Shown in pieces: positions 18,092 to 52,834 of a DNA stretch of 64,000 nucleotides. The position numbers were made by a program, and so were the translations under genes. Source of the stretch: an uncultured bacterium (GTDB lineage: Bacteria > Desulfobacterota_D > UBA1144 > Nemesobacterales > UBA2774); NCBI GenBank assembly GCA_963825135.1, contig CAWGRW010000009.1, forward strand, positions 256,001-320,000, in the 5' to 3' direction. The notes under the pieces are model-generated. The model was not told the DNA's origin and searched no databases. It saw nothing but the letters and a program-made list of their open reading frames with translations. Position 1 is the first letter of the stretch. The number at the start of each line of letters is the position of its first letter.

Positions 18092-19571
18092 TCATTTCCC
18101 AAACCTCTTAAAGTCGATATATCCGTGCTCCACATCGGTTCGGACGAGCTTCACGCGGAGCCTGTGGCCGACGTCGAGCCCCTCAAACCCTTTCACCAGC
18201 TTACCCTCGACGGGCAGCTGGAGCAGACGGACCCACGTACCCTTCTCGGATGCGCCGGTTACGATGGCATCGAACCGCTCTCCGATTCTCGGTTCAAGCA
18301 GTATTGCTGCGGCAGATTTTCCGATCTGACGTTCGACCTTCCTTGCCGCGTCCTCCTGTTCCGTACAATGCTCCGCGAGCGCCAGTAATTCATCGTTCTC
18401 ATAGGGCGAGGGACGTCCTGCCACTGCTGCTTTCAGCAGCCGCTGGGTGATCAGATCGGGATACCTGCGGTTAGGTGCCGTGGAGTGACTGTAATCACTG
18501 ACCGCGAGACCGAAGTGCCCGGGCGCGCTTTCGCCCTGTAATTGGGCGACGTATTCACCGCTGCCCATCATCTTGATGACGCTGAGGGAAAGATCGGGGA
18601 ACCGGAGAGGATCGGCGGCTTTCGCCCATTCCAGGAATTGCTCCAGGGCTTTGGAGTCGGGCTTCGGGGTTAGCGTGAAGCCCCGCTCCGAGGCGATCTC
18701 GATGATCCGGTCCCAGCGTTCGGGCGTGCGGACAACGCGCCTGCAGCGATGGAAACATTTTGGACTCGAGGTACCGTGCGGTAACGCCGTTCGCGGCGAC
18801 CATAAAGTCTTCGATAAGCTCCTTGGCCCTGTTCTTGCTTTCGGCTGCAAAGTCCCTGATAACATTTCCGTCAAACACCGGATGCGCTTTAATTGTTTCG
18901 AGGTCGAGCGCGCCGTTTGAGTGCCTGAGGGCCTTTAGCTTCTGCGCCACACGGTCCTGGAGCCGGAGATTCTCGTCAAGACCGTCCACCGCTTCGACCC
19001 CTTGCGGCATGGGCCCGTTACCCTCAAGCCAGTCCCCGACGCTGTTGTAGGCAAGCTTTGCGCGGTTGCGGACAATCGCTCCATAAATGCTCGAAGACTG
19101 AAGAGTTCCATCCCCGGCGACGACCATTTCTACAACGACGGCAAGGCGGTCTGATTCATAGTTGAGAGAGGTAAGATCGGTCGAGAGTTTCTCGGGAAGC
19201 ATCGTAAATATCTCGGCGGCGGTGTAGACCGAGGTGGTGTTCTGCCAGGCGTGATCGTCAATTGCCGACTTCTTCTTTACCATAGCGTCAACATCGGCGA
19301 CGGCGACAAGGATCTTAACGGCCCCTCCGGTCATGGCTTCGGCGACGGTAAGCTGGTCCAAATCACGCGAATCATCGTTGTCTATCGAGCACCAGATAAG
19401 GTCACTGAGATCGCGCGCGGACTCGTCAGCTTGTGCCGCAGGCCCGTGGATTCTGTCGAGCTCGTCGAGCTCCTCGGGCGAGAAATCCGGATTTAGTCCT
19501 CTTTCAAACATCGCCCGCCGCGCTAGTCTTTGTAATATTAAGCGGTGATTTCCGTCATCGGTGGCCGTCAT
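18092..19571 (-). pseudogene. RNB-domain (RNase II/R family) ribonuclease with a 1-nt insertion near 18744
   Basis: SIDNDDSRDLDQ, IEDFMVAAN, HSTAPNRRYPDL and a C-terminal S1-like region; two frames. Confidence 0.85.
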
Positions 19572-19797: not shown

Positions 19798-19930
19798 TGA
19801 CCTGCCCCCCTATAATAGGTCCATAGTATAAGTTTGCAATTCGATAAAGAAACGTTTTTACAACAACTGATTAGGGAGAGTAATAAAGAGAAATTTCGTA
19901 AGTTATTTGGGTTTAGAGGGGAGCAGTACA
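19798..19930. mobile_element. Miniature element M1 with IS3-like ends
   Basis: Starts TGACCTGCCCCCCTATAATAGGTCCA and ends GGGGAGCAGTACA; near-identical to 27882-28014. Confidence 0.75.
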
Positions 19931-20073: not shown

Positions 20074-20517
20074 ATGAAAAAGCGAGCGGAAAGAGTTAAG
20101 AGAGAAATAAGAGCGATTTTCAGTCCCGATGCTGAAAAGCCTACCAATATAGCCAAGGAGCGAACGTCCCTTTACGCAAATGCATGCAAGTTATTCGGCT
20201 CTTGGAGATATGCGCTTGAGGCATGCGGTATAGATTACGAAAACTCTAGGAATAATAAGAAATGGACACAGGACAGGATTGTTAAGGAGATTAAAAAGCT
20301 CCGGGCAGAAGGCAGCGGTCTGAGACCATCTGTACTTAGAAAAAATGGGAAGACTAGCCTCGTATCTGCAGCCGAGTATCATTTCGGTTCTTGGAGGAGT
20401 GCGGTCGAGACATCCGGCATCAATTATTCCTTCGGGAGAAAGAAGAAAACCGATTGTAGTTTGAGGCAAAGTGAAACAAATAAATCCTGCGATGTCGGCC
20501 GGATACGTACAAAGTGA
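20074..20517 (+). CDS. Stand-alone FGSW-repeat protein (homing-endonuclease-associated-repeat-like), copy 1
   Basis: Two repeats, CKLFGSWRYALEACGI and EYHFGSWRSAVETSGI; basic protein. Confidence 0.7.
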   Translation: MKKRAERVKREIRAIFSPDAEKPTNIAKERTSLYANACKLFGSWRYALEACGIDYENSRNNKKWTQDRIVKEIKKLRAEGSGLRPSVLRKNGKTSLVSAAEYHFGSWRSAVETSGINYSFGRKKKTDCSLRQSETNKSCDVGRIRTK

Positions 20518-22110: not shown

Positions 22111-22189
22111 CGATACTATTCCCAATAGTCAAAGAGAGTTAACATTACAGTTTGACAGCTTATTATTGAAATAATCCTCTTGAACTCTA

Positions 22190-22660
22190 ACCGGTGTGCG
22201 GTATCCAAGTGCCGAATGAAGGTAACTACTGTTGTAATATTGAACCCACTTATCCAGTTCACAACCAAGATCTCTTTCATTCTTCCATTCCCTTAGCCAA
22301 AAGAGCTCTTCCTATATCGTTCTAATCACTCTCTGTATCCGCGTTCCCTTTAGGGTTGTTATAGCTGGTAAATGCCTGATGGACTTCCAGATTGGAACAT
22401 GCATTCATAAAACTGAGTGATGTAGGCTGACTCCCGTTATCACTCATAAACTTTAGTCCATGACCCCTTACTCCTCCAGGGAACTCTCTGTTTAGTCCTT
22501 TCTCCAAGGCTTCCAGCCATTCTCTGCTTGTAGCTCTTCTTCCACTGTAGTGTCCTACTATCTTCTTCGTATACCAGTCCAGTACTATTACTACATAAAC
22601 CCAGCCACTGTCAGTCATAACCTTCGTCATATCTATTCCCCACCACTGTTTAGGTTCATC
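22190..22660 (-). pseudogene. IS3-family orfB fragment
   Basis: WWGIDMTKVMTDSG...MSDNGSQPT...KGNADTE, homologous to 50873-51643; truncated at both ends. Confidence 0.9.
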
Positions 22661-22664
22661 TGGT

Positions 22665-22816
22665 TATACTGCTACCCTTTTGTCAAACTCGGTTTAAGTT
22701 GGAATTATGAAGAATGCAAGGCTTCCTAACCATTCTGATAACCTTCTGTATATTATATAAGGTGCTTTGTCCAATATCTAATTTAAACTATGGACCTATT
22801 ATAGGGGGGCAGGTCA
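22665..22816. mobile_element. Miniature element M3
   Basis: TATACTGCTACCCTTTTGTCAA ... TGGACCTATTATAGGGGGGCAGGTCA. Confidence 0.8.
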
Positions 22817-22940
22817 GTGACAAAAAACAATATCAAGGTAGTTAACAGTACGCCAATTACAATATAGTTTAATTATTTCATGCTCGATCCCCCTTTATGT
22901 TATTTTGTTCAAAACATTGCTGCCTCAATCTCTTCATGCT

Positions 22941-23753
22941 TCAACTATTAGGTTTCCGGGAAATGAAAAGGTAGTTTCCCGCACGTCCTTCATCAATAAG
23001 ACGAAGATAGGTATCAAAAAATTTAACGTGATGATCAGTGGTCTCTTTTCCCTGCTCTTTCACTATAGCATCGTAGTGTTTTTTAAATGCATCACCCCAT
23101 AGCTTGATTTGGATCCTAAAATTCTCTACATCTTCTATCACCTCCATAACCCGAAATCCCGCTTGCTTGAGTTTAGTTTTATAGCTACCTACTGAATCAT
23201 AGTATTCTGGGATAAGACAACCACGAGACATACGTTTAATGACCTCTGGGTCAGCAGGCATATCTATAGCGCCACTTAGAAAAGTAAATATGCCTTTTGA
23301 TTTTAGAACACGAAGAACCTGTCGGAAAAGCCCTTCCTTATCCTTGAACACATTTATTACATTAAAGCTAATTATCACATTAAATGCGTTTTCTGGAAAT
23401 GGCATTTCCATAGCATCACCAAGATGGAAAGTCGCACGGTCACTGAGACCTGAGTCAGCGGCAAATTTTCTTGCTCGTTCTACCCCGACATCTGAAACAT
23501 CAATTCCCATTATTCGACACCCAGTTTTTTGAGCTATATAGATAGCAGGACCTCCTACACCACTTCCAATGTCCAAAACATAAGTGTCGGCATCTATGCC
23601 TGTCTTTCGAATCAATTCATCGAGATAAGGAGGAGTGATAAAAGACTGCTGTCCGATGTCCTGGTTTCCCCAGATGGTTTTTCGCATCAACCGGTTAGCG
23701 GGACTATCCAACTGATGTAATTCCGAGTAATCTGTGCTCTCTTTCTGTTTCAT
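22941..23753 (-). CDS. Class I SAM-dependent methyltransferase
   Basis: VLDIGSGVGG, GIDVS and GDAMEMPF motifs. Confidence 0.9.
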   Translation of the reverse strand: MKQKESTDYSELHQLDSPANRLMRKTIWGNQDIGQQSFITPPYLDELIRKTGIDADTYVLDIGSGVGGPAIYIAQKTGCRIMGIDVSDVGVERARKFAADSGLSDRATFHLGDAMEMPFPENAFNVIISFNVINVFKDKEGLFRQVLRVLKSKGIFTFLSGAIDMPADPEVIKRMSRGCLIPEYYDSVGSYKTKLKQAGFRVMEVIEDVENFRIQIKLWGDAFKKHYDAIVKEQGKETTDHHVKFFDTYLRLIDEGRAGNYLFISRKPNS

Positions 23754-23862
23754 TTATCCACTCCTTATTGAATATTGTTGCTATTCTAACAAAGTAGAAA
23801 GTAAAAGCAAGGGAGTGTATAGGTTCGCTAGACAAATAGGGATTTTGCTCTATCCAGAATAG

Positions 23863-24721
23863 TCAAGCAGCGTTTATACATAAAGTAATATTCTTGTAAT
23901 ACTCTTCTTCCACCTGTAACGGTGTACGGTATCCATGTGCTGAATGAAGGTAGTTCATATTGTAATATTCAACCCATTTATCCAATTCTAGGCTAAGCTC
24001 TCTTTCATTCTCCCACTCCCTTAACCAAAATATCTCTTCCTTCATTGTTCTTATCATTCTCTCTGTATCTGCGTTTCCTTTTGGGTTGTTGTAGCTTGTA
24101 AATACTTGCTCTACTTCCAGGTTGGAGCAGGCTTTCATAAACTGAGTGAAGTAGGCTGACTCCCGTTATCACTCATGAGTTTTAATTTGCAACCCCTTAC
24201 TCCTATAGGGAACTCTCTGTTTAGTACTTTCTCAAGAGCTTCTAGCCAATCTCTGCTTGTAGCTCTTGTGCCGCTGTAATGACCTACTATCTTCTTCGTA
24301 TACCAGTCCAGTACTATTACTACATATACCCAGCCACTGTCAGTCATAACCTTTGTCATATCTATTCCCCACCACTGTTTAGGTCTGTCCGGTCGGGGCT
24401 TTGGTCTCTCTGATGCCCTCTTTGCTATTAGTCTAGAGTTCGGTTTAACAGTAAGATTATGTTCTCTCATTAACCTGTATACACGCTTCTTGTTTACTAT
24501 AAATCCATCCACGTATCGTAGATATGCCCATACTCTTCTATAACCCCAGAAGGGATGCTCTCCTTTTATATCTTTTATCCTTTCAAGTAAATATTCGTTA
24601 CGAAGAGCTACAGAGTCAGACGTATTTCTCATATGAAGTCTTCCTCTGTTTTTTTTTATTCAACGGTGAGTGAGCCAATTTTCTGCTTTAGCTCCTGATT
24701 CTTCTTACGTAGACGGTTTAC
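23863..24721 (-). pseudogene. IS3-family orfB (frameshift near 24138) plus truncated orfA 3' end
   Basis: Collinear with 50873-51730; AGTTTATG versus intact AGTTTTATG; orfA cut by M4. Confidence 0.92.
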
Positions 24722-24868
24722 TGTATTGCTCCCCATTTGCCAAGTTCGGTTTAAGTTGGAATTATGAAGAATGCGAACACTTCCTGGTCATCGTATTCAC
24801 CTCCTCTTAATGGGGTTTTCTACCGAAAATCTAACTTAACTTATGGACCTATTTTAGGGGGCAGGTCA
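24722..24868. mobile_element. Miniature element M4
   Basis: TGTATTGCTCCCCATTTGCCAAG ... TGGACCTATTTTAGGGGGCAGGTCA. Confidence 0.8.
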
Positions 24869-28157: not shown

Positions 28158-28538
28158 ATGACTAATCGAGCAGAAAGAGTCAAACGAGAAATTAGAGCGA
28201 TTTTCAAACCCGATGCTATAAAGCCTACCAATATAGCCAAGGAGCGGAGGTCCCTATATATATGCGCATGCAAGCAATTCGGTTCTTGGAGGAATGCTCT
28301 TGAAGCATCAGGAATAGATTACGAGAGCTCTAGGTATTACGAGAAATGGACAAAGGACAAGATTGCTGAGGAGATTAAAAGACTCAATGAACAAGGTAGA
28401 TACCTAAAACCATATATCCTCAGAAAGAGCGGTATGACAAAACTGGTATCCGCTGCAGAGTATCATTTCGGTTCGTGGAGAAGAGCAGTCGAAGCATGTG
28501 GCATCAATTATACATACGGGAGAGAGAAAAAAAAATGA
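28158..28538 (+). CDS. Stand-alone FGSW-repeat protein, copy 2
   Basis: Paralog of 20074-20517. Confidence 0.7.
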   Translation: MTNRAERVKREIRAIFKPDAIKPTNIAKERRSLYICACKQFGSWRNALEASGIDYESSRYYEKWTKDKIAEEIKRLNEQGRYLKPYILRKSGMTKLVSAAEYHFGSWRRAVEACGINYTYGREKKK

Positions 28539-30173: not shown

Positions 30174-30220
30174 TGTACTGCTCCCCTTTTGTTAAGCTCG
30201 GCTTAAGTTGGATTTATGAA
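30174..30220 (-). repeat. Isolated IS3 right-end copy
   Basis: TGTACTGCTCCCCTTTTGTTAAGCTCGGCTTAAGTTGG. Confidence 0.8.
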
Positions 30221-30257
30221 TAGTCCGATATATCCTGCGTCATCTTTCTGACTAAAC

Positions 30258-30284
30258 AAAAAAGGGAGCCGAAGCTCCCTTTTT
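30258..30284. terminator. Intrinsic (bidirectional) terminator
   Basis: AAAAAAGGGAGC-CGAA-GCTCCCTTTTT. Confidence 0.85.
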
Positions 30285-30303
30285 CTAAATTTATCGGTCC
30301 TAT

Positions 30304-30810
30304 TTATGTATTCGCTATTCCGCGACGGATCGCATATAAACTTGTTAAGACCAATATTCCACCCAGCGCAATGAAGCCCCATTGTGTCAGTGTTGGTATT
30401 GGGGCTTGTACCAGTTTCAAACATTGGGGGACATTGGAACATGATTCCTGTTCGAACCAAGCCTCACCCACTCCATTACAAGCTGAGAAATCAACATCGT
30501 CTGCACAGTTTCTCTCATTATATTCACAGCAACCCGGACCAGAAGCCGGTTCACAGGATTGATCTTGATCGGGAGGTACTAAAACACATTTATAACCTTC
30601 ATCCCCATTTACATACCATGAATTTGAACCGCACAACTCTTCAGATAATGAGCAATTACCGACACATCCCACACATTTGTTAGCATCACGATCATAACAA
30701 CAACCAAGAGTAGCTGGTTGGGATACTCCCAATTTGGGAAAAATCATCATAAGTAACACAACAACAAAAATACTAGAAAGTATTTTGAGAGAACTGTTAG
30801 TTCTTTTCAT
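30304..30810 (-). CDS. Cys-rich IPTL-CTERM protein
   Basis: Signal peptide MKRTNSSLKIL...; C-terminal PIPTLTQWG, TM segment, IRR. Confidence 0.85.
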   Translation of the reverse strand: MKRTNSSLKILSSIFVVVLLMMIFPKLGVSQPATLGCCYDRDANKCVGCVGNCSLSEELCGSNSWYVNGDEGYKCVLVPPDQDQSCEPASGPGCCEYNERNCADDVDFSACNGVGEAWFEQESCSNVPQCLKLVQAPIPTLTQWGFIALGGILVLTSLYAIRRGIANT

Positions 30811-30854
30811 GCCGAGGCTCCCCTTAAACATTGATATTGCAAAATCCCATGTCT

Positions 30855-31742
30855 TTATGCAACTGCTCTCTTTCTGCGTATAACCATAAATCCAATTATT
30901 CCCATTAATCCGGCCATAGCTATTAAGCCCCATTCGGAAAGTGTTGGGATTGGATTCGGGCCCGGTATTACACATGATCCCTTCCAAGCAAGGCCGTCGA
31001 TTGGGATGTCCACGCCGTTCGAGCCGACCAACGTTGCTACCCCGGTGGTTACGTCCAAAGTATACAACTGCGTCGTGGAGACCCCTGCGTTAGCATACAA
31101 AATCTGATTGCATTCATCGTAAGCTAGTCCAACATAGTTGCTGAGAGAGATACCGGTAGGGCCTATAAGGTTCGAGGTGCCAGTTGCGATTGAGATTGTA
31201 TAAAGTGAATCAGTACCTGTAGCGTACAATATACCGTGCGTGTCGTCATATTCCATACCACGGCCATCGATACCAGTACCAGATCCTATAGTCTGTACCG
31301 AGCCGTCCGGGAACTGTGCCGTGAGTATATTGGAATTATTTAGATCAATCGAGTACATAACACCCCCGGCCTCGTCCGCCGCCAGACCATGCCAGTTTGC
31401 CGAACCGTTCTGATTCCCCAGAAACGTTATAATCCCGACCGTCGAGATCGACCCGATGTCATTACCACCTGAACCTCCAGGAAAATTATACAAGTCCGTA
31501 CCGTAGAGAGTTCCCTCCAGGAACGCCAGACCAGTTAAGCTCGCGCCGCCATTGAGCGTAACAATCGGTGTAGCTGCACCGCTGGACGCATCGATAGAGT
31601 ACAAGACGGCAGGGTTAGTGCTCGATAGTCCGATCAACCCATCGGGAAAATCCTGCCCGTTCACCGAACCAACCGTAAATAGAAACGTTAGCACTAAAAC
31701 TAAATTTAATTCAACCAGCGAAAATGCGATAATTCTCCTCAT
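30855..31742 (-). CDS. Beta-propeller-like IPTL-CTERM protein
   Basis: Repeated LY(S/T)IxxxxGxxxxxG blades; C-terminal PIPTLSEWG, TM segment, IRRKR. Confidence 0.88.
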   Translation of the reverse strand: MRRIIAFSLVELNLVLVLTFLFTVGSVNGQDFPDGLIGLSSTNPAVLYSIDASSGAATPIVTLNGGASLTGLAFLEGTLYGTDLYNFPGGSGGNDIGSISTVGIITFLGNQNGSANWHGLAADEAGGVMYSIDLNNSNILTAQFPDGSVQTIGSGTGIDGRGMEYDDTHGILYATGTDSLYTISIATGTSNLIGPTGISLSNYVGLAYDECNQILYANAGVSTTQLYTLDVTTGVATLVGSNGVDIPIDGLAWKGSCVIPGPNPIPTLSEWGLIAMAGLMGIIGFMVIRRKRAVA

Positions 31743-31823
31743 TTCCCCCCTCCTTTGAACATCAAATAAATCCCTACATCGTATAAGTCCCTTTATGAGT
31801 TTATTATATTTCTCATCTTACTG

Positions 31824-31990
31824 TCAAGCAGCATTTAAATGAGAATCATGATCCTTATAAAACGCTTCTTTACCTTTACTGGTGTCCGGTATCCAAGTGC
31901 GGAATGAAGATAACTCCTGTTATAATAATCGACCCACCTATTCAGTTCATGACTCAGTTCTCTTTCACTACCCCACTCTCTCAGCCAAAA
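31824..31990 (-). pseudogene. IS3 orfB 3'-end remnant
   Basis: Reads FWLREWG...YNRSYLHSALGYRTP..., ending AATGCTGCTTGA like the intact copy. Confidence 0.8.
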
Positions 31991-32722
31991 GTGGGGCCTC
32001 CGTATTTTCCTAAAGTATTTCTGTTGATCACTGCCTTAACTACACGCTTATATGCCGAGACGGTGAGTCGGGTTTAGACCGAAAATCAGGTCGGAAATGT
32101 GGGAAAAATAAGTAAAAATAAGTAAACTTGCGGGTTTCAAAAACCTCAAAACCCTAATGTTTCGCTTTTATACTACGTGAAATAATCTAAGTCAAGGCCT
32201 ACAAATAACACGATATTTTTATCGAAAATCTAATAAAATACATGGGTTCAGAGATTGCTAAAACAAGCGACAAGATTATCTACAGTTGATTTGATCCCTC
32301 TCGCGGATTCAGATATTGTTCGCCTCTGTGGTGTGCCAGTGCTCCAAGTAGCTTCTTTACAGCAATAAGATCCTGCTTCTCTTGCTCACTAGGTAGATCT
32401 TCAATGTTATGGTATGGCTGACCATTCTTAGGAAACACTATACTAACAATCTTGCGTTTGGTTTTAGATGGTGTTTTTTTAGGAATAGCTCAATTCACCT
32501 TGTATCTGATAATGTAAGTAGCTAAAATGCGGTGTCAATATCTCCACCACGCCGACAAGACGCCTCTGTGGTGTTTAGCTGGAACTCTTACAACTCGGGG
32601 TTTTTATAAAGTTCGGACGCGGAAAAAGCGGATTAAGTCCTATTATTTTGGAAATAGCGTGTATGAACTAGGGAGCCTTTAGTTCTATCACCTCAGTGTT
32701 TTGTCCCTCAATCAGGTGGAGG

Positions 32723-49508: not shown

Positions 49509-49981
49509 ATCACTGCTCCTTTTGTGAATATTCTCATTTATCTACATACATATATGTTACGAACCTCGGCCGTCCCGCGCAAGCCGGGGGCCCCCCGGCA
49601 AGGCCTCCGCTAATCAACTGAGCGCCCGGCCCGGTTAATGGAAAGTCCCCGTGGGGGAGATTATTTATTCCGGCCTGCAATTAACCCGTATCCCCGTATA
49701 CACAGATGTGATAATATGATTTTAGAGAGCGTATGTACTGCACCCTTTTGTCAAGTTGGGTTTAAGTTGGGACCGAAGCTTTAATCTAAAAAAAATTGTG
49801 ATTTGTCAATCTGCAAGTGGGATTGATTTCATCTTACAACTGCGCCATTACAAAACACTCCTAACCTGCTATATTGTTTTATAATAAAAATGGGTTTCTG
49901 GCGGATTTGAATTGGTGATATCTGGGGGCACAAACCCCATTTATCTAGTTATACAGGATATAATAAGAGAGGATATTAAAA

Positions 49982-50824
49982 ATGAAAAATATTGAAAGAG
50001 CCGTAGCTCAACATTACGGGGTCCCAGACCTTTTGGAGCGTATTTACAAGGGGCTTGAGGCTGCTGGCACGGAGTTAAACCGCTTACAGCCCGAAGATTT
50101 GGCTCCTGTTGACGAGTATCATATCGGGGGACGCAAAGCCACTGCACATGCCATTGAAAAGATGTCCTTGAACAAGGATCAACATGTTCTTGATATTGGC
50201 TGTGGCATAGGCGGCACTGCACGCTACATGGCCGAGAAGATTGGATGTAAAGTAACGGGCATAGACTTGACGCCTGAATATATTTCAATCGCTAAGACAC
50301 TAACGGATCTGACTGGCCTAGGCAACAATGTGACCTACAAAGTTGCCAGCGCTCTTGACATGCCCTTTGAAAGTAAAACCTTCGATGCGGCGATAACTAT
50401 CCATGTTGCCATGAATATCCCGGAGCGAGCAACGCTTTATCGTGAAATTGCACGGGTTATGAAACCTGGCGCGACGCTTTGTATTTACGATGTGATGAAA
50501 AAAAGTGATGAAAGCTTTTCCTTTCCCGTGCCGTGGGCGGAATCGGCAGTTACCAGTCATCTGACAACGCCAGAAGAAATGTGCACTCTTCTTGATGATG
50601 CCGGGTTTGATGTTCGCGAAGTCGACGATCGCACTGATTTTGCGCTCAACTTCTTCAAACAGAGTTTGGCTGCCGCTGCAGATGGGCCACCCCCTCTCGG
50701 GATACATCTTATAATTGGCTCGAGTGCCCCCGAGAAGTTAAAGAATATGCAGAGCAATATTGAGAACGGCTGTATCTCCGTTGTGCAAATGATTGCAGGC
50801 CGGTGTACTAACCCCCCGTTTTGA
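49982..50824 (+). CDS. Class I SAM-dependent methyltransferase (passenger)
   Basis: DEYHIGG, VLDIGCGIGG, GIDLT, HVAMNI and FPVPWA. Confidence 0.92.
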   Translation: MKNIERAVAQHYGVPDLLERIYKGLEAAGTELNRLQPEDLAPVDEYHIGGRKATAHAIEKMSLNKDQHVLDIGCGIGGTARYMAEKIGCKVTGIDLTPEYISIAKTLTDLTGLGNNVTYKVASALDMPFESKTFDAAITIHVAMNIPERATLYREIARVMKPGATLCIYDVMKKSDESFSFPVPWAESAVTSHLTTPEEMCTLLDDAGFDVREVDDRTDFALNFFKQSLAAAADGPPPLGIHLIIGSSAPEKLKNMQSNIENGCISVVQMIAGRCTNPPF

Positions 50825-50872
50825 AGGGACTGAAGGCGCGTAAGTGTGTCCACTGGTACTGATCACCTTATA

Positions 50873-51643
50873 TCAAGCAGCATTTTCGTGTGAATTATGA
50901 CTTCTGTAATATTCCTGTTCAGCCTGAACTGGTGTACGGTATCCATGTGCAGAATGCAGGTAACTCCTGTTGTAATAATCAACCCATTTGTCCAGTTCTA
51001 GGCTAAGCTCTCTCTCGCTCTCCCACTCCCTTAGCCAAAAGAGCTCCTCCTTCATTGTTCTTATCATTCTCTCTGTATCCGCATTCCCTTTAGGGTTGTT
51101 ATAGCTGGTAAATGCCTGATGAACTTCCAGATTGGAACAAGCTTTCATAAAACTGAGTGATGTAGGCTGACTCCCGTTATCACTCATGAGATTTAATCCA
51201 TGTCCCCTTACTCCTCCGGGAAACTCTCTGTTTAGCCCTTTCTCCAAGGCTTCCAGCCACTCTGCTGTTCTTGCTTGCCTGCCACTGTAGTGACCCACTA
51301 TCTTCTTCGTATACCAGTCCAGTACTATTACCACATAAACGCAGCCACTGTCTGTCATAACCTTTGTCATATCTATTCCCCACCACTGTTTAGGTCTATC
51401 AGGCTTAGGCTTTGGTCTTTCTGATACCCTCTTTGCTATTATTCTTGGGTTTGGTTTAACAGTAAGATTATGCTCTCTCATTAACCTGTATACACGCTTC
51501 TTGTTAACTACTACCCCATCCACGTACCTGAGATATGCCCATACCCTTCTATAACCCCAGAAGGGATGTTCCGCTTTTATATCTTTGATCCTTTCAAGTA
51601 AATATTCGTTACGCAGGGCTACAGAGTCAGACTGATTTCTCAT
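50873..51643 (-). CDS. IS3-family transposase OrfB
   Basis: WGYRRV, NKKRVYRLM; DDE residues in GID, SDNG and TERM. Confidence 0.95.
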   Translation of the reverse strand: MRNQSDSVALRNEYLLERIKDIKAEHPFWGYRRVWAYLRYVDGVVVNKKRVYRLMREHNLTVKPNPRIIAKRVSERPKPKPDRPKQWWGIDMTKVMTDSGCVYVVIVLDWYTKKIVGHYSGRQARTAEWLEALEKGLNREFPGGVRGHGLNLMSDNGSQPTSLSFMKACSNLEVHQAFTSYNNPKGNADTERMIRTMKEELFWLREWESERELSLELDKWVDYYNRSYLHSAHGYRTPVQAEQEYYRSHNSHENAA

Positions 51644-51915
51644 ATGAAGTCTTCCTCTGTTTTTTTTAATTCAACGGTGAGTGAACCGATTATCTGCTTT
51701 AGCTCGGCTTTCTCTCTCCTAAGCCTCTCTACTTCTCCACCGTCTTTTTTAGATTCAAAAGCTCTATGAGCTTCGGATAAGAACTTGTCCCGCCAGGTGT
51801 AGTATTGATTCTGATGTATTCCGTACTCGTTGCATATCTCTGAAACTGGTCTGCCGGATAGACCTTCAAGAACTATCTTGGTCTTTGTTTTAGAATCCCA
51901 TCTCCTTCGTTTCAT
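51640..51915 (-). CDS. IS3-family OrfA (HTH plus zipper)
   Basis: KTKIVLEGL...VSEICNEYGI...YYTW; A8 slippery run at 51660-51667 gives a -1 fusion to OrfB; ATGA overlap. Confidence 0.93.
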   Translation of the reverse strand: MKRRRWDSKTKTKIVLEGLSGRPVSEICNEYGIHQNQYYTWRDKFLSEAHRAFESKKDGGEVERLRREKAELKQIIGSLTVELKKTEEDFI

Positions 51916-52027
51916 TGCTCCCTCCCTCTGGGTTTTGCAGACATTTTACTAGCTTAATTCTACTAGCTTCTTAATGGGGAGCATTATACGTATTTACTCT
52001 TAAACGCGAGAACAGGGGGGAATTAAA

Positions 52028-52834
52028 ATGCCTAAAGTAAAAGCCAACGGTATCAATATCAATTACGAGAAGACGGGACAGGGAGAGCCCCTGATAATGA
52101 TCCCTTATCTGAGCGCCGACAACGCCTGCTACGCCTTCCAAACTCCCGAGTATGGTAAGAGCTTCGAGTGCATTTCGCTTGACCCGAGAGGGGCGGGAGA
52201 GTCGGACAAACCGGAAGGGACTTACTCGATGGAGCTATTCGCCGACGACGTTGCGGCCTTCATGGACGCGCTCGGAATTAAGAACGCGCACGTTATGGGC
52301 GTTTCTCTCGGTGCGGCGACGGCGATGTGGCTTGCGGCGAAATATCCGGCGAAGGTGAAATCGCTCTCCGTCCATAGCGGATGGACGAAGTCCGACCCGT
52401 TCCTACAGACTGTGGTCGAGGGCTGGCGCGTGACGGCGAAAGCATTGGGCAATGTCGCGGAAGCGGTGATACTGGGTATTTTCCCCTGGTGTTTCACGCC
52501 GATGCTATACGCCTCGAAACCCGAATACATTAAGGCCCTCTCCGATTTCGTGAGGAGCAGACCCGCACAGCCCGTGGATGCGTTCATGAGACAGAGCGAC
52601 GCGGTATTAGCGCACGACTGCGAGGCGCAGCTAGGCAAGATAAAAGCGCCCACGCTCATAACCTTCGGCGAGTACGACATGGTATGCTCGACCCGCTTCG
52701 CCGACAGGATGACGAAGAATATTAAAAATTCCGAGCTTCTGATTTTCAAGAACTGCGCCCACGCCGGGCTATACGAGAACGTGGAAGAGTTCAACAAGAA
52801 GACGATGGATTTTCTGGTGAAGCATAAGGGGTAG
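52028..52834 (+). CDS. Alpha/beta hydrolase
   Basis: DPRGAGES, GVSLG nucleophile elbow and CAH. Confidence 0.9.
   Translation: MPKVKANGININYEKTGQGEPLIMIPYLSADNACYAFQTPEYGKSFECISLDPRGAGESDKPEGTYSMELFADDVAAFMDALGIKNAHVMGVSLGAATAMWLAAKYPAKVKSLSVHSGWTKSDPFLQTVVEGWRVTAKALGNVAEAVILGIFPWCFTPMLYASKPEYIKALSDFVRSRPAQPVDAFMRQSDAVLAHDCEAQLGKIKAPTLITFGEYDMVCSTRFADRMTKNIKNSELLIFKNCAHAGLYENVEEFNKKTMDFLVKHKG

Follow-up and report, generated by a model that had tools for sequence, protein, structure and literature searches.

The question raised by this locus is whether a gene lying beside a bacterial insertion sequence (IS) is a neighbor of that IS or a passenger carried within it. The locus is in a 64,000-nt stretch of DNA from an uncultured member of Candidatus Dadabacteria (GTDB Desulfobacterota_D; assembly GCA_963825135.1, contig CAWGRW010000009.1, positions 256,001 to 320,000), which as a whole is called the window here and to which plain coordinates refer. 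It holds an IS of 1134 bp (50855-51988) and, directly next to it, a gene for a class I S-adenosylmethionine (SAM)-dependent methyltransferase. A preliminary description, made from the letters alone, had noted that the IS proper has a degenerate right end with a changed terminal base, that a second right end with an intact TG tip lies beyond the methyltransferase at 49734, and that CGTA flanks both outer ends, and had concluded that the 2255-bp unit 49734-51988 transposed as a whole. The first three points are borne out by the sequence (CGTA at 49730-49733 and 51989-51992), and the last is supported by empty sites in relatives, by a target duplication at the outer ends only, and by six other full-length copies that behave alike. 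We conclude that 49734-51988 is, with high probability, one mobile unit that inserted whole as an IS3-family transporter IS (tIS), in the order left end (51988), orfA, orfB, inner right end (50855), methyltransferase, and outer right-end module (49734).

The evidence that carries this conclusion is the state of the insertion site in congeners, to five of which (G009, G005, G004, G003, and G007) the left and right flanks of the unit were aligned separately. The left and right alignments to G009, and likewise those to G005, have exactly 4 nt in common and the site is uninterrupted, while G004 is contiguous across it. G003 is also contiguous, with a single CGTA, at a left-flank score (42) barely above the shuffled maximum (41.5); G007 was dropped from the count because its left flank aligned elsewhere with a score of 31, below the shuffled maximum of 48.5. 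Because G009, G005, and G004, and more weakly G003, show the site unbroken, with the target present once and both the IS and the methyltransferase missing, the 2255-bp unit went in as a single piece. Such an empty site was what the preliminary description had proposed to look for; the opposite case, a relative with the methyltransferase at this locus and no IS, was not encountered, as methyltransferase DNA was matched in none of the 40 relatives searched. Further, one metagenome contig joins 49692 directly to 52016. The insertion site is intergenic, with a short-chain dehydrogenase gene on one side and an alpha/beta-hydrolase gene on the other, and both flanks are syntenic with the congeners and meet exactly at the duplication, within a contig of 2.79 Mb. 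The parts of the unit and of its duplicated target are as follows.

49730-49733, no strand: left copy of the target duplication, CGTA, a single copy in the empty sites of congeners
49734-49779, plus strand: outer right-end module, tip at 49734 and reading inward, made of the repeat TGTACTGCACCC.TTTTGTCAAG and what remains of the final codons and stop of an orfB
49780-49981, plus strand: A+T-rich leader 5' of the cargo gene, with one promoter-like site (49847-49875), not above chance
49982-50824, plus strand: cargo gene for a class I SAM-dependent methyltransferase of 280 amino acids (aa), transcribed toward the IS (Pfam Methyltransf_11/25)
50825-50854, no strand: tail of the captured segment, ending in CACTG flush against the inner end, a junction also present in L063 and L064
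50855-50877, plus strand: inner, decayed right end GGTACTGATCACCTTATATCAAG, 18/23 against the consensus, tip T changed to G
50873-51643, minus strand: orfB, catalytic part of the transposase, 256 aa (Pfam HTH_21, rve, rve_3; NCBIfam NF033516)
51660-51667, minus strand: A8 slippery run in the orfA/orfB overlap, where a -1 shift gives an open OrfAB of 347 aa
51640-51915, minus strand: orfA, helix-turn-helix protein of 91 aa (Pfam HTH_Tnp_1)
51968-51988, minus strand: left end (left inverted repeat, IRL) TATAATGCTCCCCATTAAGAA, tip at 51988, with 1 mismatch to the 21-mer conserved in the family
51989-51992, no strand: right copy of the target duplication, CGTA

The boundaries of this unit are sharp on several counts. 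The left boundary was set at 51988 (...GGGGAGCATTATA followed by CGTA), where the homology of other copies stops, and contigs from other sequencing runs lose homology at 51988/51990. The G+C content drops from ~0.60 to ~0.45 exactly over 49700-52000. Compared with the 23-mer right-end consensus TGTACTGCTCCCCTTTTGTCAAG, the outer end (TGTACTGCACCC-TTTTGTCAAG) differs by one substitution and a 1-nt deletion and keeps its TG tip, and the inner end begins with G, not T, and agrees at 18 of 23 positions. No duplication is found at the inner end (50855), and the unit contains only one IS; past the cargo, there is no IS homology except the outer module of ~46 bp. In a promoter scan of 49650-52050, three promoter-like sites were found against a shuffle mean of 4.4, and none is claimed for the cargo.

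The element is a member of the IS3 family. OrfB scores 178.1 bits on the NCBIfam model NF033516 (IS3 family transposase; cut-off 160), and its scores on IS481 and IS630 models fall under their cut-offs. The orfA (51915-51640) and orfB (51643-50873) reading frames overlap on the minus strand and are both intact, and the window unit is thus potentially autonomous; a -1 reading on the A8 run probably produces the OrfAB fusion by frameshifting. Motifs resembling D..D..E are present in OrfB at WGIDMT, SDNGS, and ADTERM, as assigned from family motifs and not from an alignment to solved enzymes. IS3 elements typically end in imperfect inverted repeats (5'-TG...CA-3') and move by copy-out/paste-in, via a circle whose abutted ends form a junction promoter. 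Here, TG opens the right ends and TA the left end (TATACTG in 149 family matches), and the two are otherwise inverted repeats across 13 nt. The 4-bp target duplication, which was found for the window unit and eight other units, is within the 3-5 bp range of IS3. The TGTACTGC-type terminal repeat, a duplication of 3-4 bp, and an A-run frameshift between orfA and orfB resemble the features of IS150, which makes that subgroup a candidate placement at most; a left end starting with TA in all copies sets the element apart from IS150-like IS3 members.

The same behavior recurs in this genome and its relatives, which were collected via orfB and left-end matches and run through one duplication-test pipeline, where a fixed 4-mer matches by chance at 1/256. 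Among ten testable full-length copies, seven have a perfect 4-nt duplication at an outer right end beyond cargo (the window unit, L019 of 4.8 kb, L022, L024, L041, L060, and L061), and none has one at its inner end. In L061, the duplication is at the second of two stacked outer ends. Apart from the window unit, the source genome has two full-length IS copies, 87% identical, with duplications only at right ends beyond cargo: TTCG for C9:2619997-2622385, and TTTC for C8:2698-5895, the latter at the second of two stacked outer ends. Perfect duplications also bound two units that lack a transposase, L062 and L100. The former (1730-3111 of L062, G000 C9:2127229-2128610; duplication GGAT) spans 1382 bp and consists of a left end, an internally deleted IS of 161 bp, an intact inner right end, a gene for an RTX calcium-binding and CAP-domain protein, and an outer module. 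In a more distant relative (L027; 68% identity, Ignavibacteria label), the IS is plain, and its 4-bp duplication comes directly after orfB. In our reading, these copies belong to a transporter-IS lineage of the IS3 family in Candidatus Dadabacteria, in which the outermost right-end module is the one used.

A comparison of the two kinds of right end bears on which of them is used. Over 11 full-length copies, the inner ends agree with the consensus at 22, 22, 19, 18, 18, 17, 16, 14, 11, 11, and 11 of 23 positions and are mostly decayed, while the outer ends that bear duplications have 0-2 mismatches. Among 70 well-kept right ends, a sample biased to loci collected around left ends and orfB, 68 have no orfB after them; these 68 have ~46 conserved bases in common (TGTACTGCTCCCCTTTTGTCAAGCTCGGTTTAAGTTGGAATTATGAA), comprising the inverted repeat and a relic of the last orfB codons and stop, after which conservation falls to background. 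Searches for the right-end 23-mer pattern gave 10 matches in the source genome (at most three mismatches) and 224 over 33 genomes of the family, with no matches to the reversed control in either case, and the left-end 21-mer gave 149 matches over the 33 genomes (control, 4). The proposal in the preliminary description that the outer right end is used in place of the inner one is supported, with the qualification that the substitute is a module found lineage-wide and not an end acquired locally. The inner end that had been called dead is decayed, and a loss of cutting there is what its sequence would suggest. A side observation on the modules is a G+C-rich hairpin (GGGAGCCGAAGCTCCC between A/T runs) that often lies 10-40 nt inside them (e.g., G000 C9:2620046-2620090 and window 30230-30280) and may be a shared terminator insulating the cargo.

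In one relative (G042), a right-end module, 1 nt (C or T), and a left end are abutted (L111 2093-2137 and L112 331-375). These junctions would give TTGACT or TTAACA, a 17-nt spacer, and TATACT, pointing into the IS (toward orfA), and the element behind the junction in L112 is an internally deleted IS. Their layout resembles a junction promoter, and they may be tandems, circles, or targeted insertions. A circle-junction promoter with a 4-bp spacer was considered and rejected, as its spacing would be 20 bp; the 1-nt spacer of the G042 contigs gives 17 bp.

The cargo differs widely among units and, besides the methyltransferase of the window unit, includes the following.

IPTL-CTERM secreted proteins
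C-type lectin
RTX plus CAP protein
GT4 glycosyltransferase plus GH15 hydrolase, in the 4.8-kb unit
Class 3 lipases
Another methyltransferase, which shares only 35% identity over 104 residues with that of the window unit
Several proteins without a Pfam match

The methyltransferase of the window unit matches no NCBIfam model at cut-off, the best being the DVU_1556 family (93.5 bits against 155). Its homologues at 87-95% identity are on short contigs, and more distant ones (64-81%) bear proteobacterial labels. Two metagenome loci bear on the history of the cassette. L063 matches the window at 92% identity over 49743-50962 plus the left end, and runs from the outer module to the inner end and then into an internally deleted IS. 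In L064, the methyltransferase ends at CACTG followed by G, as in the window, and is succeeded by an outer-type module, a second small cargo, and a deleted IS, i.e., a two-cassette array. The altered inner tip is common to the window unit and these two copies at other loci, and therefore the capture predates the insertion studied here; the cassette and its junction with the inner end are older than the arrival of the unit in the source genome. Contigs from two other runs also bridge the cassette/IS junction, and near-identical methyltransferase DNA is present in four runs of four studies, one of which is maybe the source sample (these comparisons used assembled contigs from Logan; no RNA run was among those listed as carrying the sequence, and the highest share of sampled words in any run was 0.29). 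At eight further metagenome loci (L065-L072), the methyltransferase forms an island of ~900 bp, with copies at 73-89% DNA identity, flanks that differ at every locus, and nothing common beyond ~40 bp on either side; several are near ends of the same IS type, and no donor locus can be named from them, as each has different flanks. Homology to the IS-free gene copies (L066 and others) runs right up to the start of the inner end and no further. That the partner sequence past the repeat can differ suggests recombination at the repeats.

Several observations weigh against a mobile unit of this kind and have to be set beside the above. Not all copies conform: the outer duplication of L025 matches at only three of four positions, and L020 (whose contig ends 1.1 kb on) and L023 have no duplication at any detectable right end. 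Among 21 left-end relics without a full IS, only two (L062 and L100) have a perfect duplication with a nearby right end; the remainder are read as debris or nested insertions and not as units, as are many of the end pairs. The nearest copy of the cassette, L063, has a degenerate outer tip and no duplication. In the window unit, both working ends are blemished, the left by one mismatch and the outer right by its substitution and deletion; the left end starts with TA, unlike the TG typical of IS3 ends; and the genome has no identical second IS copy, the best being 87%, and thus no sign of recent activity.

Other histories of the locus were weighed against insertion of the whole unit. The outer module does derive from an IS right end, with the final codons and stop of orfB retained, as would be expected if a composite transposon (IS-methyltransferase-IS) had inserted and its second IS had later been deleted in situ to the last ~46 bp; the loss of flanking IS copies from a composite transposon has reportedly been described for ISApl1-mcr-1. 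However, the module boundary near position 46 is common to the 68 ends at unrelated loci, and because L063 has the same outer module and cassette elsewhere (homology from 49743), the truncation predates the insertion in the window and was not local, which leaves decay in place highly improbable. We give no better chance to a sequence of two separate events, in which the methyltransferase cassette arrived and then the IS beside it, or the reverse, and the flanking CGTA is accidental. Cargo units without transposase do exist (L062 and L100), and the abutted ends in G042 would fit landing next to resident ends, but both parts are absent from the site in congeners, the sole duplication is at the outer boundaries, the CACTG/G cassette/IS junction recurs at other loci in L063 and L064, and contigs of two other runs span it.

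A further history, which we consider slightly less probable again, is arrival by homologous recombination with DNA that already carried the insertion, the duplication then dating from an older event in another genome. The lack of a recent sister copy of the unit in the source genome would fit, as would the near-identical methyltransferase DNA in four runs of four studies; however, such a history shifts only the place of transposition and not the one-piece insertion at a target, and the flanks, in a comparison with congeners that included no recombination-tract test, show no obvious break in identity. Lastly, IS copies often mis-join metagenome assemblies, and the duplication might be coincidental or a product of misassembly around a repeated element. 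With syntenic flanks that meet exactly at the duplication, a 2.79-Mb contig, and seven independent perfect outer duplications where ~1/256 would be expected per comparison, this can be almost wholly discounted.

Returning to insertion of the whole unit by an IS3-type transposase, we propose the following mechanism. OrfAB, made via the -1 frameshift on A8, would pair the left end with the outermost good right end, the inner end being bypassed presumably because its terminal T and four other consensus positions were lost. The unit would then move by copy-out/paste-in as known for IS3, with 4 bp duplicated at integration and the cargo passively carried along. Ancestral entry of cargo between two right ends could have followed read-through to a resident solo module or decay of a second IS, both of which are possible. 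A broader reading, which we hold only tentatively, is that the ~46-bp module is a portable, reusable end and that this IS3 lineage routinely skips a right end that is worn or weaker and uses the following module instead. If so, the intervening DNA would be captured, and cassettes would be built, stacked, and reshuffled by recombination between modules.

Elsewhere in the window, further elements of related and unrelated design were observed. A second cargo unit (22161-24722) has a module at 22665, a different methyltransferase of 270 aa (22941-23753, minus strand), and then a partial IS; it lies within a pre-existing IS fragment (22161-22663) and is truncated by a further right-end module at 24722, a case of nested insertion. 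The methyltransferase unit within it (22667-24720) shares 94% identity over 2064 bp with the G009 unit L041 (duplication TTTG). Apparently a third unit of this design, now decayed, lies at 30174-31991; it has a module at 30174, IPTL-CTERM-type open reading frames (ORFs) at 30304-30987 and 30855-31742 (minus strand), and 180 bp left over from the 3' end of the IS. Two copies of a different IS-type end (TGTACTGCTCCCCT[C/T]TAAACCC...) at 19930 and 28014 have the identical outside flank tgtaaaga, and each is near an ORF matching HNH_repeat (20074-20517 and 28158-28538); the pair may have arisen by segmental duplication or represent a second family of elements. Beside the IS-rich stretch, an RNB-domain (RNase II/R-like) gene at 18092-19571 appears split into two overlapping minus-strand ORFs (18555-19571 and 18092-18874) and may be a frameshifted gene.

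How the window unit relates to known systems can be judged from its ends and its transposase. IS3 is among the largest IS families and is usually described with the transposase as its sole gene. A tIS in the sense of ISfinder/TnCentral is a single IS-like element with passenger genes inside its terminal repeats that moves as a unit (PMC9330008; 10.1101/2021.05.26.445724), and as of 2021 the class was given there as restricted to the IS1595 and IS66 families (10.1101/2021.05.26.445724). The window unit is alike in that its methyltransferase is inside functional terminal repeats and in that it moves whole with one target duplication, but it differs in belonging to the IS3 family, in retaining a second, decayed right end that separates the transposase gene from the cargo, and in having stackable cassettes. 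Other relevant systems are ISEcp1-type units (IS1380 family), where one IS mobilizes adjacent DNA via a farther right end (PMC6061673), and IS1247-driven transposable modules (the TMo concept; PMC9330008). In these, as here, the right end that pairs with the left one is more distant, and the direct repeats lie on either side of the entire unit. The window transposase, however, is of the IS3 and not the IS1380 family, the duplication is 4 bp and not 5 bp, and the outer end is a conserved homologous module of ~46 bp reused at many loci and not a chance look-alike.

With composite transposons, the window unit has in common that IS ends bracket the cargo and that the whole structure transposes, whereas it has one IS, and in place of a second "copy" there is a 46-bp stub whose boundary is the same at every locus. 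[quoted passage not shown] The sister units L062, L100, and L063 are comparable in carrying cargo without a working transposase and presumably moved in trans, but the window unit keeps orfA and orfB intact. In the accessible literature, from which ISfinder and most subscription journals fell outside the scope, no description of an IS3-family tIS, of one-ended IS3 transposition, or of a Dadabacteria IS was found. Cargo carriage of this kind is unusual for the IS3 family and is not a new kind of mobile element.

Together, these findings would extend the tIS class to IS3 and leave the general picture of gene capture by transposons unchanged. The natural set of inner and outer ends offers a test of how IS3 transposases recognize and cut their ends. 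If the tentative reading of a portable module is true, it would amount to a system with which Dadabacteria capture secreted and metabolic genes, with a logic like that of ISEcp1 read-through or integron cassettes, but on the copy-out/paste-in chemistry of IS3. For the uncultivated Dadabacteria themselves, the units suggest one way in which secreted proteins, lipases, lectins, glycosyl enzymes, and methyltransferases may be exchanged.

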